Shown: positions 10,583 to 64,000 of the stretch, one piece after another
Numbering within the stretch: position 1 is the stretch's first letter
Layout: every line of letters begins with the position of its first letter
NCBI GenBank assembly: GCA_951406725.2
Contig: OX597840.1
Coordinates: 12,710,001 to 12,774,000 of the forward strand
Direction: 5' to 3'
Source of the DNA: Octopus vulgaris
Lineage: Eukaryota
Length of the DNA stretch: 64,000 bases
Position numbers and translations under genes: made by a program
The notes under the pieces: model-generated
Seen by the model: only the letters and a program-made list of their open reading frames with translations
What the model was told of the DNA's origin: nothing
Database searches by the model: none

Positions 10583-10705
10583 ATGCCTGATGTAGTTCAT
10601 CCTGTCGTCATTGATAATGGATCACATACATGTAAAGTTGGTTTTGGAGGTGATCATGAACCAAGAATTGCCATTTCTTCAGATGCTGATTATCCCAGAG
10701 ATCAG
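10583..10705 (+). CDS. Divergent actin-like protein ActL-1, exon 1 (41 codons)
   Basis: MPDVVHPVVIDNGSHTCKVGFGGDHEPRIAISSDADYPRDQ carries the actin phosphate-1 loop DNGS..CK.GF. It ends CAG|GTACGT, the conserved phase-0 actin intron after codon 41. Confidence 0.92.
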
Positions 10706-14239: not shown

Positions 14240-14275
14240 TTCTTACTGAATTCCAGAATTCTTTTTGTATTTCAG

Positions 14276-15262
14276 AATGAAATGATTGGAGATGAACTCA
14301 AAGACTACAATGTTATAAATAAATTTGGATACAATACAAGTGTTCTTAACTTGAAGCATCCTATTGAACGTGGTGTCATTACCAACTGGGATGATATGGA
14401 GAAGATTTGGTTGCATGCATTCAAAGAGTTGAAAGTTGCACCTGCAGAAAGCTCTGTCTTGTTGACTGAGGCTGTTTTTAACCCCAAGGACAACAGAGAA
14501 AAGATGGCCGAAATTATGTTTGAAAAGTTTAACACTCATGCATTATGTATTGCTGATCAGGCTCCACTGTCGCTTTTTGCTTCTGGTCGTAACACAGGTA
14601 TGTCTGTGAATGTAGGTCATGGCATCACCCAAATTGTCCCTGTCTATAAAGGGTCAGTTATACGAGAAGCTGCTGTCCAGTGGGAGTTTGGTGGTGTGGA
14701 CATGACAGATTACCTTACGAGTATGTTGACTGAACGTGGTTATTCCTTTGACAGTCCTTCTCAAACAGAAACTGTCCGTAACATCAAAGAGATGTGTTGT
14801 TATGTTGCTCTAGACTTTGAACAGGAAATGCAGACTGCAGCCTCTGAGAAATATAAATTACCTGACAAGCAAGACATTACCATTGGCAATGAACGATTCC
14901 AAACCCCAGAACTTCTGTTCCAGCCAGGTTTAATTGATAAGGGCTCTGATGGCATTCATAAACTGATTTATAACTCAATCATAAAATGTGATAGGAATAT
15001 TAGAACACTACTATTTAAGAACATCATATTGTTTGGTGGCTCAACAATGTTCAAAGATGTTGTTTACCGCATGATAATTGAAATGAGATCTATTGTAGCA
15101 CCTACCACGAGTTTTCATATTGTTGCTCAACAATTTCGTGATAATTCTATGTGGAGGGGTGGTGCTCTGTTAACTTCTCTGTCTACCTTCATGGATCAGT
15201 GCATTCGCAGAGAAGAATATTATGAACATGGCTCATATATTCTCCATAGAAAGTATAGGTGA
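14276..15262 (+). CDS. Divergent actin-like protein ActL-1, exon 2 (spliced product 369 aa)
   Basis: Acceptor TTTTTGTATTTCAG|AAT is in frame with exon 1. Actin motifs [74 protein letters not shown] and HRK are present, with no internal stops. Confidence 0.93.
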   Translation, partial: NEMIGDELKDYNVINKFGYNTSVLNLKHPIERGVITNWDDMEKIWLHAFKELKVAPAESSVLLTEAVFNPKDNREKMAEIMFEKFNTHALCIADQAPLSLFASGRNTGMSVNVGHGITQIVPVYKGSVIREAAVQWEFGGVDMTDYLTSMLTERGYSFDSPSQTETVRNIKEMCCYVALDFEQEMQTAASEKYKLPDKQDITIGNERFQTPELLFQPGLIDKGSDGIHKLIYNSIIKCDRNIRTLLFKNIILFGGSTMFKDVVYRMIIEMRSIVAPTTSFHIVAQQFRDNSMWRGGALLTSLSTFMDQCIRREEYYEHGSYILHRKYR

Positions 15263-20927: not shown

Positions 20928-21507
20928 AATTAGTAAATAAATGGCACAACTAAGTACCGATATTTACTGGAAAAACGAACGTAAAAATACGACGCTAATG
21001 TGTAGCTTCACCGCGTATGTATTAGCAAAAATGCGTGTGTGCAACAAACTAGAGCAAAAAAACGTCTTACCTCCAGAGAGGACATCTGAAAGAGGAAACA
21101 CCCGGAAAAGGACAATGTGGGACCTGCAGGTTTCAGGTTTTACAAGATATGTCTCTCACCCATATTTTGTTTTACCTTCATCAGCCAAGCATATACGAAG
21201 ACGAAATCTACGATGTTACCACATTAATACTATCACACTCGACTGAAATGCGGAACGCTAACAGTACGAGAAACGGTGAAGAAGTTTCAAAATATCAGTA
21301 ATGCAATACAAAGTATCGCCTTCCAGTAAAAAGTAGCCTGTGAGGGAAAAAATACACAAATTAGTAAATAAATGACACAACTAAGTACCGGTATTTACTG
21401 GAAATAGCGAACGTAAAAATACGACGCTAATGTGTAGCTTCACCGCGTATGTATTAGCAAAAATGCGTGTGTGCAACAAACTAGAGCAAAAAAACGTCTT
21501 ACCTCCA
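20926..21507 (-). mobile_element. Candidate non-LTR retrozyme or PLE pLTR partial tandem: ~431-nt unit plus ~150-nt terminal redundancy
   Basis: Direct repeats 20926-21075 and 21357-21507 flank a complete hammerhead. It is inserted in (TA)n and is absent at the equivalent site of copy B (~57825). Confidence 0.65.
21115..21192 (-). ncRNA. Type I hammerhead ribozyme with canonical core
   Basis: Minus strand ATGCTTGG-CTGATGA-AGGT..ACAA.ATATG/CATAT.TTGT..ACCT-GAAA-CC TGCA GG-TC-CCACAT: all core nucleotides are present, with a GUC cleavage triplet and a palindromic stem III. Confidence 0.8.
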
Positions 21508-22175
21508 TATAAATATGTGTATTTTTCAATCTATGTGTACAAATAACACAGAAAAAATAAATAAATATTTACCAGAGTAGCAAAAATTCACATAAGTAGC
21601 AAGATGTTACAGCCTACTTATAAAGGTAGGAGCTCCAGGGTTTAGTGAAATGTTTTTGAATAACAAAGCTAATTTAAGAAATGGAGTTAAATGCAAGCAA
21701 CTGTCCAACTGTTGGATGGTATGATGTATTTTCACATGGTGGTGCTGTATGTTATGATACATGACCCGAATTTTCGTCTCCAATGCCACTTTGTCCAATG
21801 TCACTTCATCCACTTATTTTGGTCCAATATCTTTTTGTTCAATGATTTTTTTGTCCAACGACATTTTGTCCAATTTTAAATAAAATCTTTAGAAAACAAA
21901 GTGAACAACAAAATCAAATAATCATTGAAAATTTTATTTATAGGATTTGTATTTGGACAAAAACATCATCAGACAAAAAGACATCAGACGAAAAGATATG
22001 GACGAAAAGACGCTGGACAAAGTGATGTCGGACAAAAAGATATAGCACCATTATGATATTGATCCCAGACACCATGATGTTTACACGGGAGACACTGGCC
22101 CCTCTCTGATTGATTGTTAATTTTCAGGCTGAGCAGTGGATCAATATATGTCTACAGTTATACATATATAACTGT

Positions 22176-22587
22176 AGGCGCAGGAGTGGCTGTGTGGTAA
22201 GTAGCTTGCTAACCAACCACATGGTTTCGGGTTCAGTCCCACTGCGTGGCATCTTGGGCAAGTGTCTTCTGCTATAGCCCCAGGCCGACCAATGCCTTGT
22301 GAGTGGATTTGGTAGAAGGAAACTGAAAGAAGCCTGTTGTATATATGTATATATATGTATATGTATGTGTGAGTGTTTGTGTGTCTGTGTTTGTCCCCCT
22401 AGCATTGGTTGACAACTGATGCTGGTGTGTTTACATCCCCGTCACTTAGCAGTTCGGCAAAAGAGACCAATAGAATAAGTACTGGGCTTACAAAGAATAA
22501 GTCCTGGAGTCGATTTGCTCGACTAAAGGTGGTGCTCCAGCATGGCCACAGTCAAATGACTGAAATAAGTAAAAGAGTAAAAGAGTA
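22176..22587 (+). mobile_element. CORE-type SINE, full length (paralogous copy at 58491-58901)
   Basis: Matches the SINE at 478-886. Confidence 0.85.
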
Positions 22588-23673
22588 TATATAAATGAAA
22601 TAATTGAGATTCAGTTGAATTGGGTACTTAAGTTGAATTCCTAAGTCAGACCAGCATTATCCACACAGCCAAAAGTAAGGTGAATAAAATAAAAATAAAC
22701 AACAGGATTCTATGGAATCTTACTTTTTAATGTTTATAATTGACATATACCCACCTTTTACCTATTTAGGTTATGATATCAATTTTGAAATTTTATTTTT
22801 ATACAACATGACAATATTGCTTATGAACAATCAACCATAGTGCCCCTAAATAAAATTTCCTCTGTATTTACATCTTAGGTTTCTTAGCATCTTGCCCCTT
22901 TAACTGGTAATTAACATCATGATTTAAAGTCTGCCCCTACCTGCCTCGTTTTATAGACAGTTCCTTATATCCAATTAACTACTCCTAATGTCTTATTTCT
23001 TCCCAGGGGGGAAAGGGTTACATATGATAATATTTATGACTACACCTAGCCATAAGCTGTCAATTCACTCTTGTCCTTTATTCAAAATAGACACATTCTT
23101 CAAGTCTTAGATTTAGTAGTTGATAAAGAGATAAATGAATTAGAAATGAATTACAACACTATGACCTCATTATGCTCCGTGCAATTCCTAGAAGTTGTAA
23201 TCTATTCTTAGCTACAATAGAGACAACATGAATTTCTTCCATCTTCTTACTCTGTTAAAATATTTAAGAAAAATTATATTAATGTGCCCTACATGTTAAA
23301 ATTCCATTCATTTATTTGTACAGCCGAAGATGGCATTACATTAAAATTGATGTACTGATTGCATTGTTAAATTAAATGGAGCTGCTTGAAACAGTCGTAC
23401 TGCATCACTTGATATCCTGTTGCATATTTTGATTATATGTGTGTGTGTGTGTGTATTTTTTATCTTTTACTTGCTTCAGACATTAGACTGTGGCCATACT
23501 GGGGCAGGGCCTTGAAGGGTTGTAGTCAAACAAATCGACCCCAGTACTTAGTTTTTCCCAAGCCTGGTACTTATTCTGTCAAACTCTATTGTTGAACTAC
23601 TAAGTTATGGAAATATAAACACACCAACATCAGTTTTCAAGCAGTGGCAGGAACCAAAGACAGGTATAATGAT

Positions 23674-23717
<44 letters not shown>

Positions 23718-23924
23718 CTGACCTTGATGTTAGCAAAGCCATGGAATGCATTGTCAGAAGGAAGATGATCACATTCTTTGAAGAAAATATCTTGCTCACT
23801 AACATGTAGCATGGTTACACTTTAATATGGAGCTCCCTTACATAATTAATCGCATATTAAAAATGAATAATTAATCAACAGCTCAACTGTTCAAATATCG
23901 ATGTGATGTATCTCAAATGTCAAT

Positions 23925-24350
23925 CATGGAATGATATGGTCACAAATTGTATGACCCTTGTATCACAGGGAAACTAGGGACATGGCTGCATTACAGAAAG
24001 TCATTGCAAAGGGATCCCTAGCCAGGGAACTGTATGAGGATCACTGCTGTTCAAAGAGGCTCTCCCACCCGTGCTCTCAGTCAGACAGTCTCACCAGCTC
24101 TGCTGATGATATCTGAGTATTACAAAGTCTCAAGGACTACAGAATGATAGGAACGTAATATACAAATGGTCTGAAGAAAGCAACATAAAGTCTAATGCTG
24201 ATAAATTGCAAGCATTTTGATATCACCCTACAGATTCCACTTGGAATGCACAGGAGCAGGGAGTATTGCAATCCCAAACTTAGAGTCAGTGCTTGACTTG
24301 GGAATCCACTTGAGTGGCAATGTGTCTTTCTGTGGGAATATTACTAAGGC
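23925..24350 (+). mobile_element. Degenerate CR1/L2-like LINE reverse transcriptase relic (copy at 60030-60455)
   Basis: Broken frames reading ..QGTV..SLLF, ADD, W......N.DK and DLGI. Confidence 0.5.
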
Positions 24351-24967
24351 ACATATACTTACACACATATACAGAAGTTACCATACACAGACACACACAC
24401 ACACTCACTTGCTCTCCCTTCAGACATTGCAGTTGGGCTGTTATGATGAAACATTCTCTAAAGTGCATCAAAAACAACAGAACACTATTTTTATTAAATT
24501 CTTTATTAAAGTTCAGATCACACAAAAATCAACATTTTACTCAAATTTTATGGTTACATGGCAGTTTAGGACAACATTATCTTACCATTAATAACAAACT
24601 TATAATACTGAAAATAGGTTCCAGAGAGGAATATTGCTAACAAAATATGTTAGTACTAATTAAATCCATTTGTTACCAGATTTCTTTTAAGATACAAAAA
24701 TTATGAAGAATTTAGTCAAAATAACTTTGTCGTTATGAAACTGGCATTTCAAACATACATTAACGCAAATATTTCATGGAAGATTTTAATTGAAATCACT
24801 TTAAAACAGGCAGCTTTTATCATAGAATCAGGGGTTACTCTCAGGTGGTTAGTATTAAAAGGGTTAGTAGGATTTCATTAATATCTCTTATTAATTGTCA
24901 TTGAAGGGCTGAAAGTTAAACATTCAGCTTCCAGCTCTGGCCTATCACATTGTGCCATATATACATA

Positions 24968-25978
24968 CTAAGGACTCAAATTTTCCATTTTATGTATATG
25001 TTTCCTACAGACATGAGGTGCGTCAGAATTTTTATATTCTCCTTTTGTAATCCACAGATCATCAGTGGGAGGTCTACTAGCCAATCTAGAACCCCCAATC
25101 CATGGAGAGTATTCACGTTCTGGTAGAGCAATGATATTAACCTCTGTGTCAGGTGGTGCCAAGGCACTGATTTCCTTTTTCATACGCTCAACAAAACCTG
25201 GAAACATTGTTGAACCACCAGACAACACAATGTTGGCAAACAGATCTCTCCTAATTTCCTCATCACATTTCATGATTGAGTTATAAGTTATTTTATGAAC
25301 ACCATCAGAAGGGTTGAAAATAGCTTCTGGGACTCGAAATCGTTCATTGCCAATGGTAATGATTTGTCCATCAGATTGTTCATGTCTCTTTTCCAAAGCT
25401 TTAGAAGACTTTGCTGCCTGCATTTCTTGTTCAAAGTCTAGAGCAACATAGCAGAGCTTCTCTTTGATGACATTTAACGTTCTTTTCTCTGACATTGAGT
25501 CACCTAACATGTAGCCACGTTCAGTCAAGATATTTTTAAGGTTATCTCTCAAGGCAAGACCAGTAATATTCTCATGCTGGCAGAAAGTAGCTCCTTTTAT
25601 AGTTGAAGCTCCATAAATAGGGACAACTTGGGTGATACCATGGCCTACATTCACAGAAATACCTGTGACACGGCCAGAATCAAAGAGGGACAAAGCAGCT
25701 TGATTAGCCACCATAACTGCACGAACTTGAAACTTTTCAAACATAATTTCAACCATTTTCTCTCTGTTTTTTTCAGAGTTACCGACAGGCTCAGTCAACA
25801 AGACAGCATAGTCTTCGGCTGCAATGTTCAACTCGTCGAATGCATGTTGCCAGATCCTCTCCATATTACCCCAGTCAGTAATAAGACCATGTCCAATGGG
25901 ATTCTGCAAATTAGGCAAAGTTTTATCCTTTTCAGCTTTCTCTCCAACAAGGAATTCGGGGTTTGGTCCAAGATAACT
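24968..25978 (-). CDS. Divergent actin-like protein ActL-2, exon 2 (spliced product 374 aa)
   Basis: Acceptor TTATATTGCAG|AGT is in frame with exon 33356-33469. Motifs [77 protein letters not shown] and WIGGS are present; ORF intact. Confidence 0.93.
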
Positions 25979-26121
25979 CTGCAATATAATAAATGACAAT
26001 AAGAATTCTAGAAACTTAAGTCAATAAAATTTTTTACAAGATAGAAATAATAGAAAGAATTACACAAACAATGAAATTTTCATAATCAATCCTATAATAT
26101 CCTATAATTAATCCTATAAGC

Positions 26122-26469
26122 TCTATATATATAAAACTGAGAATGTGTGTGTGTGTGTCTGTCTGTCTGTCCGTCTGTTTGTCTGTGTGTTTCCCTAAAA
26201 CTTGAGAAATACACAAGCAATTTCATTCAAATTTTACACATGCCTTATTTAGGGTCCGGGGAGTGTCATTGCAAGAGACGGGCCTACAATTCCAGACTGT
26301 TATATATTTTGAGTATTGTTATCACTAGTGATATCAAGATATAACTTTGTATTTTGTATTTTATGTGTAGATGTATATATATAGAAGTACATGTAATATG
26401 TACACATATATATACACATATATACATGCACTAGAAATATGACCCAGCAACGACGGGTCATAATGCTAG
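26122..26469 (+). mobile_element. Non-autonomous Helitron in the ActL-2 intron (copy at 62217-62568)
   Basis: 5' TCTATATATATAAAA plus a TGTC tract; 3' hairpin TGACCCAGCAACGACGGGTCA then CTAG|T. Confidence 0.75.
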
Positions 26470-26662
26470 TATCCTATAATTAATCCTATAATTAATCGAA
26501 TCATATCCTATAATTAATACTATAATTGATCCTATAATATCCTATAATCAATCCTATAATATCCTATAATCAATCCTATAATATCCTATAATTAATCTTA
26601 TAATATCCTATAATTAATCCTTTAATATCTTGTAATTAATCCTTTAATATCCTATAATCATA

Positions 26663-27723
26663 TCTATAAAAAGGTGGATGTGTGTGCGTGTGTGTGTGTA
26701 CAGGATAGTAATTTATGCACATCCACAAATTAGCACGCATGTAGCTCAAATTTTAGGACATTTGTCAACACCCTATCTGGGTTTTGTCAACTTAATTTTT
26801 CTCCGAGGGATCCGTGAGTAGAGTAAATATCTAATTTCAGACATAGCTTTAAGCCACAAAAAAAATTGGACTTAGCTTTTTTGCTGGCGTCTAACAAAAA
26901 AATAAGATAAAGAAAAGTGGAAGAAGGAGGCAGAGAGTTTCATGGAAAAGACAAGGTGAGAGAGGGAGAGAGAGAGTAAGTGACTACATTCATAAAAAAA
27001 TAAAATGTAAAATGTTTTGTTTTTTATTTTTGAAAGGCACACTATATTTTATAATCATTGTATATATACTTTCTTACACAACAATTACAATATATTTATT
27101 TTAAATCATTTATTTATTTTAAATTGTTCATCTTTCTCCCCTCCTCTCTCTCTCACACATTGCTTTGGGTGCAAAAGAGTTTTGTCTTTATTTTACGCCG
27201 AGTAAAAAAGTGTTTTGGTGACAATCCATTTATTTAACAACAAAGAAACAAAGAGGTGAGTAACAATTTGTCAGTGAATTACACAATATAAATGGGTACA
27301 ATTTGCGAGGCTTCCACCACAACCCACTCCATTTCATGGACCACAAAAAGGGTTTTGAGGCCAGAGTAGTTGATTCCACGAAAAAAAACGATTTTTTTTC
27401 TTAGTGAAAATTGTGCGAGTGTTAATCTACAAATTTAACAACATTCATTTCTGTTTATCAACATATATGCATGCAAAAAACATGCAATTCGTCTACATAC
27501 GTACGTGTGTGTATGTGTGTTCGTGTCTGTTGCCCATATATATTTATATTATATTATATAAATATATATATAATATATATATAACATATATATATTGTAA
27601 CTAATTTCAACGAATTTCGCCCAAAATTTGACGTCTATATTACATAGTTTCATTTGAAATAAAGAACTTCATTAGCTTAATAATCATACCTTAATTCCGG
27701 GCAAGGCCAGGTTATACTGCTAG
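26663..27723 (+). mobile_element. Non-autonomous Helitron in the ActL-2 intron (copy at 62782-63780)
   Basis: A|TCTATAAAAAGG start; 3' CCGGGCAAGGCCAGG hairpin then CTAG|T; it splits the AT satellite. Confidence 0.75.
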
Positions 27724-30700
27724 TCAATACTATAATATCCTATAATCAATCACGTAATATCCTATAATCAATCCTATAAAATCCTATAATTAATCCTATA
27801 ATATCCTATAATTAATCCTATAAACAATCCTATAATATCCTATAATTAATCCTATAATATCCTATAAATGATCCTATATGATTGTATAGTCAATCCTATA
27901 ATACACTATAATCAATCCTATAATAGCCTATAATTAATCCTATGCTATCCTATAATCAATCCTATAATACCTTTTAATCAATCCTATAATATCCTATGAT
28001 TAATCCTATAATATCCTATAAGCGATCCTATAATATCCTATAACACCCTGTAATCAATCCTAAAATATGCTCTAATATCCTATAATTAATCCAATAACAT
28101 CCTATAATAAATCCTATAATATTCTATAATCAAACCTATAATATCTTATAATTAATCCTATAATATCCTATAATTAATCTTATATAATTCTATAATTAAT
28201 CCTATAATATCCTATAATCAATCTTATCAAATCCTATAATTAATCCTATAAAATTCTACAATTAATCCTATAATATCCTATAATGAATCCTAAAATATCC
28301 TATAATTAATTCTGTAATACCCTGTAATCAATCCTACAATATCCTATAATTAATCCTCTAATATCCTATAATTAATCTTATAATATCCTATAATCAATCC
28401 TATAATATCCTATAATTTATTTTATAATACCCTGTAATCAATCCAGCAAAATCCTATAATTAATCCTATCATATCCTATAATTAATGCTATTATATCCTA
28501 AAATTAATCTATAATATCCCATTATTAAGTAATCCTAAAAGACACTGTACTCAATACTAAAATATCCTATAATTAATCCTATAATATCCTATAATTATTC
28601 CTGTAATATCCTATAAATAGTCTTATAATATCCTATAATTAATCTAATAATAAATTCGATAATATCCTATAATTAATTCTATAATATCCTATAATTAATC
28701 TTATAATATCCAATGATTAATCCTGCAATATTTTTCATTAATCTTAAAATATCCTATAATTAATCCTATAAAATCCTATATTTTAATCGTATCATATCCT
28801 ATAATTAATCCTATAATATCCTATAATTAATCCTATAATATCAAATAATTATTCCTATAATATCATGTAATCAATCCTATAAAATCCTATAATTAATCCT
28901 ATAATATCCTATAATTGATCCTATATGATTGTATAGTCAATCCTATAATACACTATAATCAATCCTATAATAGCCTATAATTAATCCTATACTATCCTAT
29001 AATCAATCCTATAATACCTTTTAATCAATCCTATAATATCCTATGATTAATCCTATAATACCCTATAAGCGATCCTATAATATCCTATAACACCCTGTAA
29101 TCAATCCTATAATATCCTCTAATATCCTATAATTAATCCTATAACATCCTGTAATAAATCCTATAATATTCTATAATCAAACCTATAATATCTTATAATT
29201 AATCCTATAACTAATCTTATATAATTCTATAATTAATCCTATAATCAATCTTATCAAATCCTATAATTAATCCTATAAAATTCTACAATTAATCCTATAA
29301 TATCCTATAATGAATCCTAAAATATCCTATAATCAATTCTATAATACCCTGTAATCAATCCTACAATATCCTATAATTAATCCTCTAATATCCTATAATT
29401 AATCTTATAATATCTTATAATCAATCCTATAATATCCTATAATTAATTCTATAATACCCTGTAATCAATCCAACAAAATCCTATTATTAATCCTATCATA
29501 TCCTATAATTAATGCTATTATATCCTAAATTAATCTATAATATCCCATTATTAAGTAATCCTAAAAGACACTGTACTCAATCCTATAATATCCTATAATT
29601 AATCCTATAATATCCTATAATTAATTCTATGATATCCTATAATTAATCATATTATATCCTATAATTAATCCTATAAAATCCTATAATTATTCCTGTAATA
29701 TCCTATAAATAGTCTTATAATATCCTTATAATATCCAATAATAAATTCGATAATATCCTATAATTAATCCTATAATATCCTATAATTAATCTTATAATAT
29801 CCAATGATTAATCCTGTAATATTCTTTAATTAATCTTAAAATATCCTATAATTAATCTTATAGTATCCTATGATTAATCCTATAATATCCTATAATTAAT
29901 CCTATAAAATCCTATATTTTAATCGTATCATATCATATAATTAATCCTATAATATCATATAATTATTCCTATAATATCATATAATTAATCTTATAATGTC
30001 CTATAATTAATCCAATAATATCCTACAATTAATCTTATAATATCCTATAATTAATCCTATAATATCCGATAATTAATCTTATAATATCCTATTATTAATC
30101 CTATAATATCGTGTAATTAATCTTATAATATCCTAAAATTAATCCAATAATATCTTACAATTAATCTTATAATATCCTATAATTAATGCTATAATTAATC
30201 CTATAATATACTATAGTATATTATAGAATTAATTATAGCATTAATTATAGGATATTATAAGATTAATTGTAAGATATTATTGGATTAATTTTAGGATATT
30301 ATAAGATTAATTACACGATATTATAGGATTAATAATAGGATATTATAAGATTAATTATCGGATATTATAGGATTAATTATAGGATATTATAAGATTAATT
30401 GTAGGATATTATTGGATTAATTATAGGACATTATAAGATTAATTATATGATATTATAGGAATAATTATATGATATTATAGGATTAATTATATGATATGAT
30501 ACGATTAAAATATAGGATTTTATAGGATTAATTATAGGATATTATAGGATTAATCATAGGATACTATAAGATTAATTATAGGATATTTTAAGATTAATTA
30601 AAGAATATTACAGGATTAATCATTGGATATTATAAGATTAATTATAGGATATTATAGGATTAATTATAGGATATTATCGAATTTATTATTGGATATTAAT

Positions 30701-32300
30701 CCTACAATATCCTCTAATTAATCCTATAATATCCTATAATTAATCCTATAATACCCTGTTATCAATCCTACAATATCCTATAATTAATCCTATAATATCC
30801 TATAATAACCTATAATCAAAACCATAATATCCTATAATTAATCCTATAATACCCTGTAATAAATCCTACAATATCCTATAATTAATCCTATGATATCCTA
30901 AAATTAATCTATAATATCCCTACAATTAATCTTATAATATCCTATAAGTAAATCTATAATATCCTATAATATCCTATAATAAATCCTATAATATCCTATA
31001 ATTAATCTTATAATATCCTATAATTCATCCTATAATATCCTATTATTAATCATGTAATATCCTATAATTAATCCAATAATATCCCACAATTAATTTTATA
31101 ATATCCTATAATTAATCCTATAATTAATCCTATAATATGCTATAACTAATCCTATAATATCCTATAATTTATCCTATAATACCCTATAATTAATCCTATA
31201 ATATCCTATAATTATTCCTATAGTATACTATAATTATTCCTAAAATATCCTTTAATTAATCTTATAATATCCTATAATATCCTATAATTAATCCTTTAAT
31301 ATCCTACAATTAATCTTATAATATCCTATAATTAATCCTTTAATATCCTATAATTAATCTTATAACATCCTATAATTAATCATATGATATCCTATATTTA
31401 TTCTTATAATATCCTATAATTAATCCTATAATAACCAATAATTAATCTTATAATATCATATAGTTAATCTTATAATATCATATAACTAATCTTATAATAT
31501 CCTATAATTAATCCAATAATATCCTACAATTAATCTTATAATATCCTATAATTAATCTTATAATTAATCCTATAATATCCTATAATTAATCTTATAATAC
31601 CCTGTAATCAATCATGCAATATCCTGTAATTAATCCTATAATATCCTATGATTAATCTTATAATAACCTGTAATCAATACCACAATATCCTATAATTAAT
31701 CCTATAATACCTTGTGATCAATCCTACAATATCCTATAATTAATCCTATGATATCCTAAAATTAATCTATAATATCCCATTAATAATTAATCCTAAAAGA
31801 CCCTCTAATAAATCCTATAATATCCTATAATTAATCCTATAATATCCTATAATTAATCTTATAATATCCTATAATTAATCCTATAAAATCCTATTGTTAT
31901 TCCTATAATATCCAATAAATAATCTTAAAATGTCCTATAATTAAGTTTATAATATTCTATAATAAATCCTCTAATATCCTATAATTAATCTTATAATATC
32001 CTATAATTAATCCTATAATATCATATAATTAATCTTATAATATCCTATAATTAATCCTAATATCCTATAATTAATCCTATAATATCCTATAATTAATCCT
32101 ATAATATCCTATAATTAATCCTATAATATCCTATAATTAATCTTATAATACCCTGTAATCAATCCTACAAAATCCTATAAGTAATCCTATAATATCCTAT
32201 AATTAATCTTATAATATCCTATAATTAATCCTATAATATCGTGTAATTAATCTTATAATATCCTAAAATTAATCCAATAATATCTTACAATTAATCTAAT
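27724..32300. repeat. AT-rich satellite, ~22-bp unit ATCCTATAAT+ATCCTATAATTA, with a ~1.05-kb higher-order duplication and an internal inversion
   Basis: Direct reading. The diagnostic variant GATCCTATATGATTGTATAGTC occurs at 27870 and 28917. Further pieces lie at 26085-26120 and 26470-26660, and in copy B from about 62155. Confidence 0.95.
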
Positions 32301-32311
32301 ATGCATGTATG

Positions 32312-32361
<50 letters not shown>

Positions 32362-33355
32362 TGTATGTATGTATGTATATGTATATATATATGTATATGC
32401 ATATGTATATGTATATGTATATATATACATACATACACACACATATATATATATGTATATGTATATATATACATACATATATATATATATGTATATATAT
32501 GTATATATATATATATATATATACACATACATAGATATATACACATACATATATATATATACATATATAAATATTGAGGTTATAAGTGCTTATGTATATA
32601 TATATACACACACACACAGAAAGAAAGAGAGATATGCATATCTATATATATATGTGCGTTTGTATGCACGTGTATGTACATACATACATTCATAATATAG
32701 AGAAAAACGGAATAGTTCACCTAAAACTCATGCATGCCATGTGTTTGGCGGTTTTTAATTATTTAAACAAATCTACAGTATTTGTTGCATTTTGATTCGG
32801 AGTTCAGCACGCTACAACATGTATCATCAGCGGATTATATATCCGAAAAAGAAGACACTCTAAATGTAAGACACATAACGTGCTTACAGAATTGACCAAT
32901 GGCTTGCATTCATAAAGAACTATAAAGCTAAGTGCTGTAAGCATGCAGAACCATTCCATATATAGAGTGACCAGCCATATAATTAGCTTCCTATAAATAT
33001 ATATGTATATGTATATTTAATTTAAAATTTAATAAGGGTAGAAATTGATATTAATCAATTAAAACCAGTGGCCCAGCATATTAAAAAATCTGAAGATTAA
33101 AATATTATTGCTTACAAAATTTAAAGGACTGACCACTAAAAGTGGACGGTCAACATGCTAGATATATACGTCAAGTCGCTATTTTCCACAAAGAATATGT
33201 TCTCAAATAAGAACTCAGCACAAAACCAAAGCATTAAAAATATTTTATTTATTTGTGAACATATTTTTTGTGGAAAATAGCGATTTGACGTCTATATCTA
33301 GCATTTTTGAGTGGTCAGTCCTGTATGTATGTATATGTATATAGAGTCAACATAC

Positions 33356-33469
33356 CTGGAGATTGGGATAACCAACAAATGGAGGAATCACTTTTCTTTC
33401 TTCATAATCACCTCCAAAACCAGCTTTACACATATATGATCCATTATCAATAACAATGGAAGCAACCAT
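33356..33469 (-). CDS. ActL-2 exon 1 (38 codons; not in the ORF track)
   Basis: Minus strand [38 protein letters not shown] followed by the donor CAG|GTATGT, at the same intron position as ActL-1. Confidence 0.92.
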
Positions 33470-44874: not shown

Positions 44875-46100
44875 TGAATAGTGGGTAGCAATTCCTATAC
44901 CCATCGATTGACGTAGATTTTGCAGTGGAGAAGTGTGTGGAGATGATCAACGAGAGCCAGGTGGAGTTTTATAATGTCAACATAGAAGAACTGGGCCTCC
45001 TACTTAGACTGACATGTAATAATGAATACTTAGATAAACATAATCTTAGTAGTTTCTGCCCCAGTAGAGGTTTAAGAGGTAGACCGCCTACAATTACTTC
45101 TATGGCTAGGAAGACACATATAGAAAGATGGCGCGGATGGACCAGAGCCATACGGAGCCCCGCAAATGTCCATCAGGTAAAGAAAATGATCGCACATGCA
45201 CTAGGAGCTAGTATAAGAGTTACCCTAAAAGGCCACACGTTTAAATTTCATAATAAAATATGTGCCCAGGACGAGGGGGCAGCCATCAGTGTTAGTATCG
45301 CTGGTGATGTGGCCAACCTTTTCATGGTATGGTGGGACAGAAGGCTTAAAGAACGCCTACTGCAGAAATCCATACTCGTAAACATGTACTCTCGCTATGT
45401 TGATGATATCAACATAGTGGTAAAGGCACCCCCACAAGAGAGTAATGTTGATATAGTAATAGAAACTAATACTATGGAGAGCATCCAGCAAATAGCTAAC
45501 TCCATCCACCAGAGTATTAAGGTCACAATAGACTACCCCACTAAACACCCCAACCATAGACTACCAGTACTAGACACTGAACTCTGGCTAGAAATTGTGA
45601 ATAATAAAACCCAAATCCTTCATTCATACTATGCCAAACCTATGGCCTCAAAATACCTGATCCACCGGAACTCAGCCATTGCGGGCAATGCCAAATTCAA
45701 TATTTTGATGGCAGACCTCGTCAGAATAATGAGAAATGTGTCACGCATGTCCGAGCCTACAGAGTTAAAGAGACACATACAATATTTCATTCACCGCATG
45801 CAGTTCTCAGGTTACAGCCATAAAGAAAGGATCAGAGTATAAAAAGGAGCCATGAAGAAATTTGATAATATATTATGTAATGATAGGAATGGGATTTGCC
45901 CACTCTATAGGAACAAGTCATGGAACACTATAGAAAGGACAAAAAAGAAAATAGGGAAGGCCAACTCTTGGTATGATAGCCATAAATACCAGAGTGTCAT
46001 GTTCGTTGACACCACCCCTGGAGGTGAACTGGCGTACCGCTTTAGAAGGACCCTAGACGAACTTAAGCTAAGAATTAAGGTTGTTGGAAAGCCAGGCAAA
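44875..46100 (+). mobile_element. Penelope-like RT fragment (different family from 35887)
   Basis: LYPSID, GAAI...AG.VANLFM..WD, YSRYVDD, LPVLD..LW, YY.KPM.S; in-frame TAA at 45840-45842; truncated at both ends. Confidence 0.8.
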
Positions 46101-51406: not shown

Positions 51407-52262
51407 TCATTTTGTACAATGGATGAATGAACTAGATTCGTAATATTTTCTTTTAGACTTCATACCTTTGAAGGAAAGCTCAGAAACCAAACTAGAACCA
51501 CCAATCTATGGAGAGTATTCACGTTCTGGTAGAGCAATGACATTAACCTCTGTGTCAGGTGGTGCCAAGGCACTGATTTCCTTTTTCATACGCTCAACAA
51601 AACCTGGAAACATTGTTGAATGCCCGGACAACACGATGTTGGCAAAAAGACCTTTTCGGAGTTCCTCATCACATTTTCATGATTGAGTTATATGTTGTTT
51701 TATGAAGACCATCATATCCCATTCCGAGTAAACTTGGCTTGAGCATAGCTTCTGGGACACGGAATCGTTCATTTCCAATGGTAATGAATTGTCCATCAGG
51801 TAGTTCATAACTCATTTCCAAAGATGAAGAAGAGGCTGTTGTCTCCATTTGCTGTTCAAATTCTAGAGCAATGCTTTTTAACCTTTTTGCTGGAGCGGAA
51901 CCCCAAGGAAACATTCCACTGGCTCGGGGAACCCCTGCGCAATAATTTAATAGTCTTATGCATACATATTTGCACAGGAGAATTAAAAATTACTGCCGCT
52001 TTTAGCAGTTTTGTAACTTCTTGTGGAATCCCTGAACTGTATTGGCGGAACCCTGGTTGAAAACCACTGGTCTAGAGCAACATAGCAGAACTTTTCTTTG
52101 ATGTCACAGACAATTTCCCTCTGAGAAGCTGCGTCAAAGCAATAGCCACGTTCCATCAAGATCCTCATAAAGTCAAGTTGAGACCAGCAAGATCCTGATG
52201 GATTGCAGTATTTCGTGTAATTAAAGCTTCACAGACAGGGACAACTTGGGTGATACTATGAC
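51407..52262 (-). pseudogene. Actin-like pseudogene (3' two-thirds of exon 2)
   Basis: HSITQVVPV...LMERGY.F....[16 protein letters not shown] / [31 protein letters not shown]. Lesions: TGG->TAG at 51506-51508, a +1 frameshift near 51675, a frameshift near 52170, a MITE insertion and loss of the 5' part. Confidence 0.92.
51869..52069. mobile_element. hAT-Charlie-type MITE (201 bp)
   Basis: 15-bp imperfect TIRs CAATGCTTTTTAACC / GGTTGAAAACCACTG; 8-bp TSD TTCTAGAG (51861-51868) and GTCTAGAG (52070-52077), matching the Charlie NTCTAGAN target preference. Confidence 0.88.
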
Positions 52263-52849
52263 AACTGATGCTGGTGTGTTTACGTCCCCATAACCTAGCG
52301 GGTTACATTAATGGTACACATGACTGAGGAGTACTCAGCCACTTATCAAATACAATGAACAGATCTGACATTGCTATAAGTCGATGTAAAATGTATTTGT
52401 GTGTATGTGTGTGTATGTGGTGTTACATGTGTGTTTCTTTGTGTCTGTGTTTTCTCCCCACAATATAAATATTTTTCTATTTTTTTCCTTTACAAGTTTC
52501 AGCCATTAGACTGCGACCATGCTGGAGCACTGTCTAAAAGAAATTTTAGTTGAATGTATCAAACCCAGTACTTATTTTTTAAAAGCATGGTAATCATTCT
52601 GTCGGTTTCTTTTGCCAAACCACTAAGTTACAATAATAAAGACAGTTGATTTGTAAACAAAGAATAAAATACTGTTTGAGGCTTAGCTAGGATGAGTTAT
52701 CTTCCTTAAATCAGTTCAGTTGGCAAACCTTATGAACTTAAGTGCTAAACAGGTAATCTCTGCCTTTAGGCTGTTTCCAGTCAGCAAGGATTCTTTTTGA
52801 CTCTAATCAATGAATGGGGAACCCCATGCCTGCAGCAGGTAGCATTTGA

Positions 52850-57768: not shown

Positions 57769-57829
<61 letters not shown>

Positions 57830-60800
57830 TGTGTATTTTTCAATTTATGTGTACAAATAACACAGAAAAAATAAATAAATAGTTACCAGAGTAGCAAAAA
57901 TTCACATAAGTACCAAGATGTTACAGCCTACTTATAAAGGTAGGAGTTCGAGGGTTTAGTGAAATGTTTTTGAATAACAAAGCTAATTTAAGAAATGGAG
58001 TTAAATGCAAGCAACTGTCCAACTGTTGGATGGTATGATGTATTTTCACATGGTGGTGCTGTATGTTATGATACATGACCCGAATTTTCGTCTCCAAAGA
58101 CACTTTGTCCAATGTCACTTCATCCACTTATTTTGGTCCATTATCCTTTTGTTCAATGATTTTTATGTTCAACGACTTTTTGTCCAATTTTAAATAAAAT
58201 CTTTAGAAAACAAAGTGAACAACAAAATCAAATAATCATTGGAAATTTTATTTATAGGATTTGTATTTGGACAAAAACATCATCGGACAAAAAGACGTCA
58301 GACAAAAAGATATGGACGAAAAGACACTGGACAAAGTGACGTCGGACAAAAAGATATAGCACCATTATGATATTGGTCCCAGACACCATGATGTTTACAC
58401 GGGAGACACTGGCCCCTCTCTGATTGATTGTTAATTTTCAGGCTGAGGCAGTGGATCAATACATGTCTACAGTTATACATATATAACTGTAGGTGCAGGA
58501 GTGGCTGTGTAGTAAGTAGCTTGCTAACCAACCACATGGTTTCTGGTTCAGTCCCACTGCGTGGCATCTTGGGCAAGTGTCTTCTGCTATAGCCCCGGGC
58601 TGACCAATGCCTTGTGAGTTGATTTGGTAGAAGGAAACTGAAAGAAGCCTGTCGTATATATGTATATATATGTATATGTAAGTGTCAGTGTTTGTGTGTC
58701 TGTGTTTGTCCCCCTAGCATTGGTCGACAACTGATGCTGGTGTGTTTACATTCCCATCACCTAGCAGTTCGGCAAAAGAGACCAATAGAATAAGTACTGG
58801 GCTTACAAAGAATAAGTCCCGGGGTCAATTTGCTCGAGTAAAGGTGGTGTTCCAGCATGGCCACAGTCAAATAACTGAAATAAGTAAAAGAGTAAAAGAG
58901 TATATATAAATGAAATAATTGAGATTCAGTTGAATTGGGTACTTAAGTTGAATCCCTAAGTCAGACCAGCCAAAAGTAAGGTGATAAAATATTTATGGAC
59001 TAATGTTTATAATTGACATAGCAATTTTAAATTTTATTTTATACAACATACAATATTGCTGTCAATTCACTCTTGTCCTTTTTCTTAGCATTCAAAATTA
59101 ACATCATGACACATTCTTCAAGTCTTAGATTTAGACTAGTTGATAAAGAGATAAATGAATTGAAAGAAATGAATTACAACACTATATGACCTCATTATGC
59201 TCCGTGCAATTCCTAGAAGTTGTAATCTATTCTTAGCTACAATAGTGACAACATGAATTTCTTCCATCTTCTTACTCTGTTAAAATATTTAAGAAAAATT
59301 ATATTAATGTGCCCTACATGTTAAAATTCCATTCATTTATTTGTACAGCTGAAGATGGCATTACATTAAAATTGATGTACTGATTGCATTGTTAAATTAA
59401 ATGGAGCTGCTTGAAACAGTCGTACTGCATCACTTGATATCCTGTTGCATATTTTGATTATATGTGTGTGTGTGTGTGTATTTTTTATCTTTTACTTGCT
59501 TCAGACATTAGACTGTGGCCATACTGGGGCAGGGCCTTGAAGGGTTGTAGTCAAACAAATCGACCCCAGTACTTAGTTTTTCCCAAGCCTGGTACTTATT
59601 CTGTCAAACTCTATTGTTGAACTACTAAGTTATGGAAATATAAACACACCAACATCAGTTTTCAAGCAGTGGCAGGAACCAAAGACAGGTATAATGATGC
59701 ACACACACACACACACACACACACATCTGACCTTGATGTTAGCAAAGCCATGGAATGCCTTGTCAGAAGGAAGATGATCACATTCTTTGAAGAAAATATC
59801 TTGCTCACTAACATGTAGCATGGTTACACTTTAATATGGAGCTCCCTTACATAATTAATCGCATATTAAAAATGAATAATTAATCAACAGCTCAACTGTT
59901 CAAATATCGATGTGATGTATCTCAAACCACTGGGTAGTAAAGAAATATATTAAATGAATAATTAAAACAGCTCAACTGTTCAAATATCGATGTGATGTAT
60001 CTCAACTTTGCCAAGGCCCTGACAAATGTCAATCATGGAATGATATGGTCACAAATTGTATGACCCTTGTATCACAGGGAAACTAGGGACATGGCTGCAT
60101 TACAGAAAGTCATTGCAAAGGGATCCCTAGCCAGGGAACTGTATGAGGATCACTGCTGTTCAAAGAGGCTCTCCCACCCGTGCTCTCAGTCAGACAGTCT
60201 CACCAGCTCTGCTGATGATATCTGAGTATTACAAAGTCTCAAGGACTACAGAATGATAGGAATGTAATATACAAATGGTCTGAAGAAAGCAACATAAAGT
60301 CTAATGCTGATAAATTGCAAGCATTTTGATATCACCCTACAGATTCCACTTGGAATGCACAGGAGCAGGGAGTATTGCAATCCCAAACTTAGAGTCAGTG
60401 CTTGACTTGGGAATCCACTTGAGTGGCAATGTGTCTTTCTGTGGGAATATTACTAAGGCACATATACTTACACACATATACAGAAGTTACCATACACACA
60501 CACACACACACACACTCACTTACTCTCCCTTCAGACATTGCTGTTGGGCTGTTATGATGAAACATTCTCTAAAGTGCATCAAAAACAACAGAACACTATT
60601 TTTATTAAATTCTTTATTAAAGTTCAGATCACACAAAAATCAACATTTTACTCAAATTTTATGGTTACATGGCAGTTTAGAACAACATTATCTTACCATT
60701 AATAACAAACTTATAATACTGAAAATAGGTTCCAGAGAGGAATATTGCTAACAAAATATGTTAGTACTAATTAAATCCATTTGTTACCAGATTTCTTTTA

Positions 60801-63800
60801 AGATACAAAAATTATGAAGAATTTAGTCAAAGTAACTTTCTCGTTATGAAACTGGCATTTCAAACATACATTAACGCAAATATTTCATGGAAGATTTTAA
60901 TTGAAATCACTTTAAAACAGGCAGCTTTTATCATAGAATCAGGGTTTACTCTCAGGTGGGTTAGTATTAAAAGGGTTAGTAGGATTTCATTAATATCTCT
61001 TATTAATTGTCATTGTAGGGGTGAAAGGGGTCTCCCCATATGTACATACTAATTTCTCAAATTTACTATTATGTTTCCTACAGACATAAGATACGCCAGA
61101 TTCTTTATATTCTTCTTTTGTAATCCACAGATCATCAGTGGGAGGTCTACTAGCCAATCTAGAACCCCCAATCCATGGAGAGTATTCACGTTCTGGTAGA
61201 GCAATGATATTAACCTCTGTGTCAGGTGGTGCCAAGGCACTGATTTCCTTTTTCATACGCTCAACAAAACCTGGAAACATTGTTGAACCACCAGACAACA
61301 CAATGTTGGCAAACAGATCTCTCCTAATTTCCACATCACATTTCATGATTGAGTTATAAGTCATCTTATGAACACCATCAGAAGGGTTGAAAATAGCTTC
61401 TGGGACTCGAAATCGTTCATTGCCAATGGTAATGATTTGTCCATCAGATTGTTCATGACTCTTTTCCAAAGCTTTAGAAGATTTTGCTGCCTGCATTTCT
61501 TGTTCAAAGTCTAGAGCAACATAGCAGAGCTTCTCTTTGATGTCATTTAACGTTCTGTTGTCTGACATTGAGTCACCAAACATGTAGCCACGTTCAGTCA
61601 AGATACTTCTAAGGTTATCTCTCAAGGCAAGACCAGTAATATTCTGATGCTGACAGAAAGTAGCTCCTTTTATAGTTGAAGCTCCATAAATAGGGACAAC
61701 TTGGGTGATACCATGGCCTACATTCACAGAAATACCTGTGACACGGCCAGAATCAAAGAGGGACAAAGCAGCTTGATTAGCCACCATTACTGCACGAACT
61801 TGAAACTTTTCAAACATAATTTCAACCATATTCGCCATGTGTGTTTCAGAGTTACCAACAGGCTCAGTCAACAAGACAGCATAGTCTTTGGCTGCAACGT
61901 TCAATTCGTTGAATGTATGTCGCCAGATCCTCTCCATATTACCCCAGTCAGTAATAATACCATGTTTAATGGGATTCTGCAAATTAAGGACAGTTTTATC
62001 CTTTTCAGCTTTCTCTCCAACAAGGATTTCGATTTTTGGTCCAGAATTTTTCTGCAATATAATAAATGACAATAAGAATTCTAGAAACTTAAGTCAATAA
62101 AATTTTTTACAAGATAGAAATGATAGAAAGAATTACACAAACAATGAAATTTTCATAATCAATCCTATAATATCCTATAATCAATCCTATAATATCCTAT
62201 AATTAATCCTCTAATATCTATATATATAAAACTGAGAATGTGTGTGTGTCTGTCTGTCTGTCTGTCTGTCCGTCCGTCTGTCTGTGTGTTTCCCTAAAAC
62301 TTGAGAACTACACAACCAATTTCATTCAAATTTTACACATGCCTTACGTAGGGTCCGGGGAGTGTCATTGCAAGAGACGAGCCTACAATTCCAGTCTGTT
62401 ATATATTTTGAGTATTGTTATCACTAGTGATATCAAGATATAACTTTGTATTTTGTATTTTATGTGTAGATGTATATATATAGAAGTACATGTAATATGT
62501 ACACATATATATACACATATATACATGCACTAGAACTATGACCCGGCAACGACGGGTCATAATGCTAGTATGCTATAATTAATCTTATAATATCCTACAA
62601 TTAATCGCATCATATCCTATAATTAATCCTATAATATCCTATAATTGATCCTATAATATCCTATAATCAATCCTATAATATCTTATAATTAATCCTATAA
62701 TATCCTATAATTAATCTTATAATATCCTATAATTAATCCTTTAATATCCTGTAATTAATCCTTTAATATCCTATAATCATATCTATAAAAGGGTGGATGT
62801 GTGTGCGTGTGTGTGTGTACGTGATAGTAATTTATGCACGTCCACAAATTAGCATGCATGTAGCTCAAATGTTAGGACATTTGTCAACACCCTATCTGGG
62901 TTTTGTCAACTTAATTTTTTCTCCGAGGGATCCGTGGGTAGCGTAAATATCTAATTTCAGACATAGCTTTAAGCCACAAAAAATATCGGACTTAGCTTTT
63001 TTGCCAGCGTCTAACAAAAAAATAAGATAAAGAAAAGTGGAAGAAGGAGGCAGAGAGTTTCATGGGAAAGACAAGGTGAGAGAGGGAGAGAGAGAGTAAG
63101 TGACCACATTCATAAAAAATGGAATGTAAAATGTTTTGTTTTTTGTTTTTGAAATGCACACTATATGTTATAGTCATCGTATATATACTTTCTTACACAA
63201 CAATTACAATATATTTATTTTAAATCATTTATTTATTTTAAATCGTTCATCTTTCTCCCTGCTCTCTCTCTCTCTCTCACACACATTACTTTAGGTGCGA
63301 AAGAGTTTTGTTTTTATTTTATGCCAAGAAAACAAGTGTCTTGTTGACAATCCATATATTTAACAACAAAGAAACAAAGAGGTGAGTAACAATTTGTCAG
63401 TGAATTACACAATATAAATGGGTACAATTTGCGAGGCTTCCACCACAACCCACTCCGTTTCACAGACCACAAAAAGGGTTTTGAGGCCAATAATTTTTCC
63501 ATTCATTTCTGTTTATCAACATGTATGCGTGCAAAAAACATGCAATTGGTCTACATACGTACGTGTGTATATGTGTGTTCGTGTCTGTTGCCCATATGTA
63601 TTTATATTATATTATATATATATATATATAATATATATATAACATATATATATTGTAACTAATTTCAACGGATTTCGCCCAAATTTGACGTCTATATTAC
63701 ATAGTTTCAGTTGAAATAAAGAACTTGATTAGCTTAATAATCATACCTTAATCCCGGGCAAGGCCAGGTTATACTGCTAGTCAATACTATAATATCCTAT

Positions 63801-64000
63801 AATCAATCATGTAATATCCTATAATCAATCCTATAATATCCTATAATTAATCCTATAATATACTATAATTGATCCTATATGATTGTATAGTCAATCCTAT
63901 AATACACTATACTCAATCCTATAATAGCCTATAATTAATCCTATACTATCCTATTATCAATCCTATAATACATTTTAATCAATCCTATAATATCCTATGA
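57176..64000 (+). repeat. Segmental duplication copy B (contains ActL-4 exon 2), runs off the window end
   Basis: Colinear with 20307-28020. Confidence 0.92.
60990..62051 (-). CDS. Divergent actin-like protein ActL-4, exon 2 (353 aa; exon 1 presumed beyond 64000)
   Basis: Acceptor TTATATTGCAG|AAA; intact ORF, paralogue of ActL-2 with a longer C-terminal tail. Confidence 0.9.

Follow-up and report, generated by a model that had tools for sequence, protein, structure and literature searches.

Young copies in a tandem array of highly altered actin-like genes, restricted to Octopus, differ about twice as much at non-synonymous sites as in the non-coding DNA duplicated with them, and their silent sites match that DNA. 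For the two young copies with exon 2 in the window, A (ActL-2) and B (ActL-4), we consider that diversifying selection acting against gene conversion is probably the explanation. The case for positive selection is strong when the exons are compared with their flanks, and borderline within the exon. By the window we mean the whole 64,000-nucleotide stretch of Octopus vulgaris DNA analysed here (G000:C27:12710001-12774000, from a genome of 2.8 Gb). An initial annotation had compared exon 2 of the two copies with the adjoining intron and attributed the difference to selection on surface loops; selection on surface patches is still the best reading, although on other grounds than those given there.

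An actin-like array restricted to Octopus

A genome search located 16 exon-2 loci of the array within 300 kb (C27:12.58-12.88 Mb). Exon 2 is open in ten (L005, L011, five C-type genes and copies A, B and E) and broken in six (L018, copy D and four frameshifted copies). The young copies are A, B, D and E, of which D and E lie just outside the window and matched B at 87-89% in the genome search; further members in the same region of C27, also found by genome search, are 51-66% identical to B. In a quick tree, the cluster proteins form one clade (SH-aLRT 99) to the exclusion of conventional actins. The named relatives that exceed 60% identity come from three Octopus species only, the squid and cuttlefish genomes not having been searched directly. 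The main features are collected in Table 1.

Table 1. Features of the actin-like array in and near the window (window positions unless a contig is named).
Feature	Position	Strand	Remarks
Copy B (ActL-4) exon 2	60990..62051	(-)	actin ~44 to end; Pfam Actin E=5.5e-86
Copy B exon 1	G000:C27:12795646-12795759		outside window, 23.6 kb upstream of exon 2
B second half of D-loop (actin 44-52)	62025..62051	(-)	9/27 nt unlike A
B variable patch, actin 114-118	61830..61844	(-)	THMAN vs A's KNREK
B variable C-terminal patch, actin 360-374	61071..61115	(-)	
B derived tail	60990..61070	(-)	deletions of 8 and 31 nt replace ancestral HKMENLSP end
Copy A (ActL-2) exon 2	24968..25978	(-)	Pfam Actin E=1.1e-81
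Copy A intron	25979..33355	(-)	phase 0 at actin 41/42
Copy A exon 1	33356..33469	(-)	38 codons, ending in first half of D-loop
Duplicated block around A exon 2	21507..27931	(.)	matches 57821-63998 at 92-99%
Duplicated block around B exon 2	57821..63998	(.)	matches 21507-27931 at 92-99%
C-type subfamily member L014, exon 2	14273..15262	(+)	Pfam Actin E=6.7e-89
C-type L014, exon 1	10583-10705		same gene as exon 2 at 14273..15262
Broken actin-like copy	51410..52356	(-)	frameshifted, with stop codons; four copies of this kind exist; neutral control

Each young copy has a 38-codon first exon and a phase-0 intron at actin 41/42. Five conventional actin loci lie on other contigs and four of them have an intron at the same place, which points to an origin of the array by DNA duplication from a conventional actin (the history of the actin family in molluscs is treated in PMC5440852, consulted in excerpt). 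The HKMENLSP end is common to A, E and the O. sinensis and O. bimaculoides proteins and has been lost in B, where the two deletions together restore the frame and so leave a tail 17 residues longer. At the position of this tail, contigs in three of four sequencing runs (X15, X17 and X7) have the longer DNA of A/E type.

Several further observations concern the structure of individual copies. Copy D (C27:12804484-12805479) is interrupted by a nonsense codon (exon-2 codon 205) and has lost 1 nt near its end. Even so, all 12 of its private changes are replacements, the most one-sided tally of any copy, and this weighs against selection as the explanation. Upstream of copy E (C27:12845010-12853070) there are two copies of exon 1, the nearer one frameshifted, and L005 (12585308-12589002) likewise has two. 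The introns of the young copies contain a 22-bp AT-rich satellite, which in A occupies 27726-32296 (206 copies) and in B runs from 63500 onward for more than 10 kb. At 36424-38827 and 44889-45842, open reading frame fragments resemble by eye a Penelope-type retroelement, with reverse transcriptase and GIY-YIG-like pieces; these fragments had no Pfam match.

In databases, the family is present solely as automatic predictions. The translation of copy E is database protein P0001, an O. vulgaris predicted protein that clusters with three O. sinensis 'actin-like' models, and two O. bimaculoides models are 67-78% identical. Some models are fusions (P0102 and P0256): B has been joined to the adjoining broken copy together with a satellite exon, while a model of 1331 residues appears to unite several C-type genes, which makes the annotation of the array unreliable. 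High scores also went to P0005-P0021, among which are numerous entries from abalones and bivalves, ~534 residues long, that contain actin-like repeats and may represent a further expansion of actin in molluscs. The literature searched, with most subscription papers outside its scope, contained no description of the Octopus array. An excerpt of PMC11202624 lists one 'Actin' among gonad-biased genes, whose identifier could not be linked to array loci; one supplement of that paper had none of the terms sought, the word 'actin' is absent from the supplements of PMC6341066, and the sections of PMC9068888 that were covered make no mention of the array.

Departure from conventional actin

Conventional actins are mutually very similar, at roughly 80% identity or more. 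The array proteins are 52-58% identical to the genome's own conventional actins and 53-56% to others. This identity, together with a changed catalytic set and the loss of the hydrophobic plug, rules out the idea of a conventional actin under positive selection. The initial annotation had taken the near-invariance of conventional actin as its premise, which fails for proteins at 53-58% identity whose older family pairs have dN/dS of 0.47-0.81.

The Pfam Actin domain (PF00022) spans the full length of the array proteins. A structural model of copy E, a sister copy 89-91% identical to B, reached a pLDDT of 93 when built with 117 sequences (47.6 with 20) and a TM score of 0.93 to solved actins. 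The alignment shows that D11, G13, S14, K18, H73, Q137, K213, E214 and G301-G302 are kept, and the proteins are predicted to have an actin fold that preserves Q137 as well as the phosphate-1 and adenosine loops. Fixed in all young copies are G15Y, D154N, D157H, H161Q, R183L, Y169S, K336E, L349R and F352T. N154 and Q161 also occur in the O. sinensis and O. bimaculoides models, and among the cluster genes Q161 is found in 11/11 and H157 in 10/11. The hydrophobic plug (residues 266-271) is missing from A, B, D, E and O. sinensis, but O. bimaculoides has it. Conventional mollusc actins have the fold and PF00022 in common with the octopus proteins, but keep the residues that the array has changed (D154N, D157H, H161Q, G15Y, R183L and K336E).

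According to an excerpt of PMC7221352, Q137, D154 and H161 are the catalytic candidates in actin and the plug is the main cross-strand contact. Given the altered catalytic residues and the missing plug, the array proteins are predicted from their sequences to have weak or no ATP hydrolysis and to form no ordinary two-stranded filament of their own. The altered pocket is itself conserved, and this, with the dN/dS of the older pairs, indicates that the family is under constraint.

The D-loop, which in conventional actin is a hydrophobic element of the filament contacts, shares one of 13 residues with it in the young copies. One O. bimaculoides model (P0106) has a lysine-rich D-loop with a sequence unrelated to those of O. 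vulgaris, which we take to resemble a nuclear localisation signal. The D-loop and the neighbouring C-terminus form the along-strand site that is read by cofilin, coronin and myosin (PMC7221352, in the part consulted).

Divergence of exon 2 and its flanks

Copies A and B were aligned over exon 2 up to the frame shift of B (24968-25978 vs 60990-62051). Over 327 gap-free codons they have 49 nucleotide differences, and our recount agrees with the initial annotation in finding 36 amino-acid differences and six synonymous-only codons. Its other counts also stand: 20 of the 36 replacements fall in codons 1-74 (28/222 nt, or 12.6%), the first 27 nt of the exon hold nine differences against one in the last 120 nt of the intron, and the three variable patches that it named (the D-loop start, KNREK/THMAN and NSDAPH/ESGVSY) are all present. 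The intron figure is a low draw, as 191 of 573 non-coding 120-nt windows have 0-1 differences (mean 2.7) and the last 1.2 kb of the intron differs between A and B at 48/1180 positions (4.1%). The exon figure is far less easily matched; of 294 non-coding 222-nt windows, one reaches 10%, at the edge of a mis-aligned insertion, and codons 1-74 are more than 10% different in five of the six pairs of young copies.

As a baseline, the duplicated, repeat-masked non-coding DNA of the young units differs at 1510/67068 positions (2.25%), a value that leans low because it takes only BLAST alignments of at least 85% over 500 nt. It derives from 70 of 72 such alignments, those dropped being an older C-type coding pair and a dispersed-repeat pair. 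The four broken copies differ at 167/6187 positions (2.7%). In the six pairs of young copies, which share ancestry and are not independent, divergence at non-synonymous sites is 3.6-5.9%. Fourfold sites, counted only where the first two codon positions agree, differ at 13/842 (1.5%) and second codon positions at 96/2190 (4.4%). From the flank rates one would expect the four copies to carry 13.3 silent and 45.4 replacement variants; we observed 13-15 and 79-81, so that replacement variants are 1.8 times the expectation. Codon changes private to a single copy number 39 replacement and four silent.

The two halves of the D-loop are encoded 7-24 kb apart, and each forms a peak of its own: 5/12 nt differ at the end of exon 1 (the last 12 nt of that exon in A have five sites unlike those of B) and 9/27 nt where exon 2 begins, compared with 7/201 and 1/120 in the intron ends beside them. 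Differences between the young copies are also more clumped in coding DNA, with a variance/mean of 3.13 (1.41 in non-coding DNA) and at least eight differences in 11/108 windows of 60 nt (2/1166 in non-coding DNA).

We also looked for variable columns across seven sequences, the four copies of O. vulgaris plus three models from O. sinensis, D's record ending at residue 242. Variation is heavy in residues 33-52 (14/18 columns), 53-69 (6/17) and 70-130 (21/60), absent from 131-176 (0/48), moderate in 177-215 (9/40), 2/47 and 4/22 in the two segments that follow, nearly absent from 291-350 (1/60), and high again in 351-375 (8/25). The D-loop and the C-terminal tail are thus the most variable parts and the core is essentially invariant; for surface exposure we relied on actin numbering and the established structure.

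Gene conversion among the copies

The copies have exchanged sequence by gene conversion and have a mosaic ancestry. Informative sites pair A with D in 15/19 cases in exon 2, 4/14 in the intron and 1/13 on the 3' side (exon 2 vs intron p=0.006; exon 2 vs 3' side p=0.0002). The initial annotation had set such a mosaic against selection, to be recognised by variable patches that match a third copy exactly. Matches of this kind exist in part: the D-loop start of A is exactly that of D, and of the 36 residues by which B differs from A, 20 or more are also found in D or E, eight others in O. sinensis or O. bimaculoides models, and eight are private. The D-loop start of B is unmatched among the O. 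vulgaris copies; the O. sinensis models include both B-like and E-like starts, and a contig from run X7 shows no difference from B in codons 1-23 among those listed. In the C-type genes, exon-1 and exon-2 types are reassorted in different combinations. Their two exon-1 types (C27:12633900-12720705) are unlike at 30-33 of 123 nt, with omega of 1.0-1.4, and the 230 nt upstream of this exon are 3% different.

A peak of coding divergence amid flanks homogenised by conversion has been described as the mark of selection acting against conversion (PMC3924837, in excerpt). The array shows this published signature, and conversion and selection are therefore not alternatives. The case described there is exon 5 of the human red and green opsins, where, as in octopus, a coding peak separates duplicates within homogenised introns. 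The opsins have two fixed types, whereas the octopus has four or more copies with shuffled variants, and the octopus likeness is one of sequence.

Tests of selection

The pairwise test proposed for A and B gave values that are only borderline above 1 (1.35-2.25, p 0.026-0.25). With kappa set at 1, 2 and 3, dN/dS was 1.76, 2.06 and 2.25 (one-sided p 0.107, 0.046 and 0.026), and with AT-biased flank rates it was 1.35-1.64 (p 0.25-0.085). Replacement and silent counts over the four copies gave an omega of 1.5-1.9 (p 0.073-0.023), or 1.1-1.4 without the broken copy D (p 0.39-0.20); with isolated single changes only, p was 0.12-0.23. One-ratio maximum likelihood on the four copies gave 1.5-1.6 (p 0.10-0.18).

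Site models gave larger signals. In purpose-written codon models (M1a/M2a and M8a/M8), 2dL was 15-19 with ~37% of sites at omega ~5. Across 11 genes and 264 codons, leaving out the D-loop and tail, 2dL was 39.4, with 24% of sites at omega 2.8 and the remainder at 0.38. The C-type subfamily repeats the excess, with 287/6354 coding differences (4.5%) and 688/26172 non-coding (2.6%), and four of its genes gave an M1a/M2a 2dL of 16.2 and a one-ratio omega of 1.18. A three-class free model (2dL 7.6-12) was set aside, since one of its classes lay at a boundary and its degrees of freedom were uncertain.

These standard site models should not be taken at face value. For the four copies, M8 does no better than a model in which omega is 1 and rates vary among sites (lnL -2003.4 vs -2002.2). 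Once gamma rates are added, the gain falls to 4.3 for the four copies (p=0.12) and, with shared rate variation, to 6.2 for the 11 genes (p=0.044). Among neutral simulations in which tract ages were patchy and trees mixed, 6/54 reach the observed M1a/M2a value of 19.3. The significance of the site models thus largely goes once patchy tract ages are allowed, although letting a rate term absorb the signal is conservative, as shared silent and replacement peaks are also predicted by selection against conversion.

The same results can also be read as relaxed constraint with shuffled old tracts, in which the family would be dispensable and redundant, its surface loops would drift neutrally, and short tracts from older and more divergent copies would survive conversion by chance or because divergence blocks it, giving a patchy omega of ~1 with no positive selection. 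Besides the neutral model and the simulations, this explanation can draw on the fact that other copies or species also have 28 of the 36 residues of B, on the six broken loci among 16, and on old divergent patches in C-type non-coding DNA (18/92 in the intron and 15/96 in the 5' leader). We nevertheless consider it unlikely. Only 2/54 of the same simulations reach a one-ratio omega of 1.6, and they assume far more patchiness than the young non-coding DNA has. At either end of the intron the peaks of divergence go no further than the exon, silent variants fit the flank expectation that replacement variants exceed, and the excess recurs in the C-type subfamily.

Clustered mutation is a very improbable source of the excess. 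Multi-nucleotide events or slippage in A-rich patches of the exon would inflate dN/dS, since several bases changed at once nearly always alter amino acids; 16 variable codons do have more than one variable position, the changes in B's D-loop are mostly towards the nucleotide A, and significance weakens once clustered changes are removed. The codons with a single variable position still show 52 replacement to eight silent changes (p 0.016-0.051), and among 70 non-coding alignments, which are more A+T-rich, 27-nt windows with at least nine differences occur in one, which is mis-aligned. Uncollapsed haplotypes or sequencing errors are more improbable still: the flanks are 92-99% alike, the copies sit among long satellites and their number is known from this genome alone, but 38 of 40 listed variant letters from four independent runs are found in A, D, E or the 3' untranslated part (leaving only two new coding letters among the 40), O. 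sinensis and O. bimaculoides records share the family and many residues, and errors would not favour replacement sites.

Transcription

In run X15, which is putatively RNA, a 1320-nt contig on exon 2 runs straight into the end of A's exon 1, and the cover ends at the exon border and reaches 3' to 60651. The joined exons indicate that an A-type copy is transcribed and spliced. The contig is A-like, with A letters at 31 of the 33 listed differences from B, and has 37 differences from B in all, vs 44 for A; as contigs may be mosaics of copies, we did not use it as an allele. No B-type transcripts were seen in the runs examined. Run X17 gave shallow pieces only, with the exon joint absent among those listed, and runs X22-X24 of the same studies had next to no matching words, which says nothing on tissue.

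A possible diversified actin interface

Diversifying selection acting against conversion would work on the array in two ways: conversion would shuffle and even out the tandem copies, while selection would preserve and add amino-acid differences on the outer surface of the protein. The D-loop and the C-terminal tail, where change is most concentrated, each provide one half of the along-strand contact, so that binding partners would vary from copy to copy. The most likely role of the proteins is a specialised structural one, possibly related to sperm; they would serve either as stable scaffolds or by capping conventional actin structures or mixing into them as subunits.

A bolder version seems doubtful to us, namely that the array is a hydrolysis-dead, multi-copy diversity locus, in which conversion would reshuffle a pool of D-loops and C-terminal tails and an ongoing arms race would select new combinations. 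Such a race would act at the interface read by actin regulators; sperm competition, sperm-egg conflict and the decoying of parasite proteins that target actin are candidates, and the initial annotation had likewise suggested reproductive conflict or pathogen effectors.

The closest precedent for the array is found in the testis actin-related proteins of the Drosophila obscura group (D-ActL1-3 and Arp2D), which are likewise divergent duplicates of actin confined to one lineage, with signs of positive selection at the protein surface (PMC7038667, as are the following points, from the sections covered). The fly paralogues keep the motifs for ATP binding and hydrolysis, whereas the octopus catalytic residues are altered; no recombination and little recurrent hot-spot selection are described for them, whereas in octopus the genes contain introns, stand in tandem, undergo conversion and have recurrent hot spots. 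Their testis expression is proven, while the octopus genes are known from sequence and one spliced A-type contig. By analogy with flies and mammals, male germ-line expression of the octopus genes perhaps has an even chance, and a role of the proteins in sperm would be a guess. Drosophila Arp53D and mammalian germ-line Arps such as ACTL8 are also non-canonical and lineage-born, but probably arose independently of the octopus genes, and their localisation in flies and mammals is known (excerpts of PMC8291977 and 10.64898/2026.08.21.746286). The array belongs with this known class of lineage-specific actin-related proteins, and is itself apparently undescribed.

Fast-evolving relatives of actin are already known from flies and mammals, mostly from the testis, and an independent octopus array would make a third animal lineage for such cytoskeletal innovation. 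Its form differs from that in flies, being tandem and shuffled by conversion, with catalytic residues replaced and hot spots at the D-loop and C-terminal tail. The near-identical copies amount to a natural mutagenesis series of the interface that is read by actin-binding proteins.
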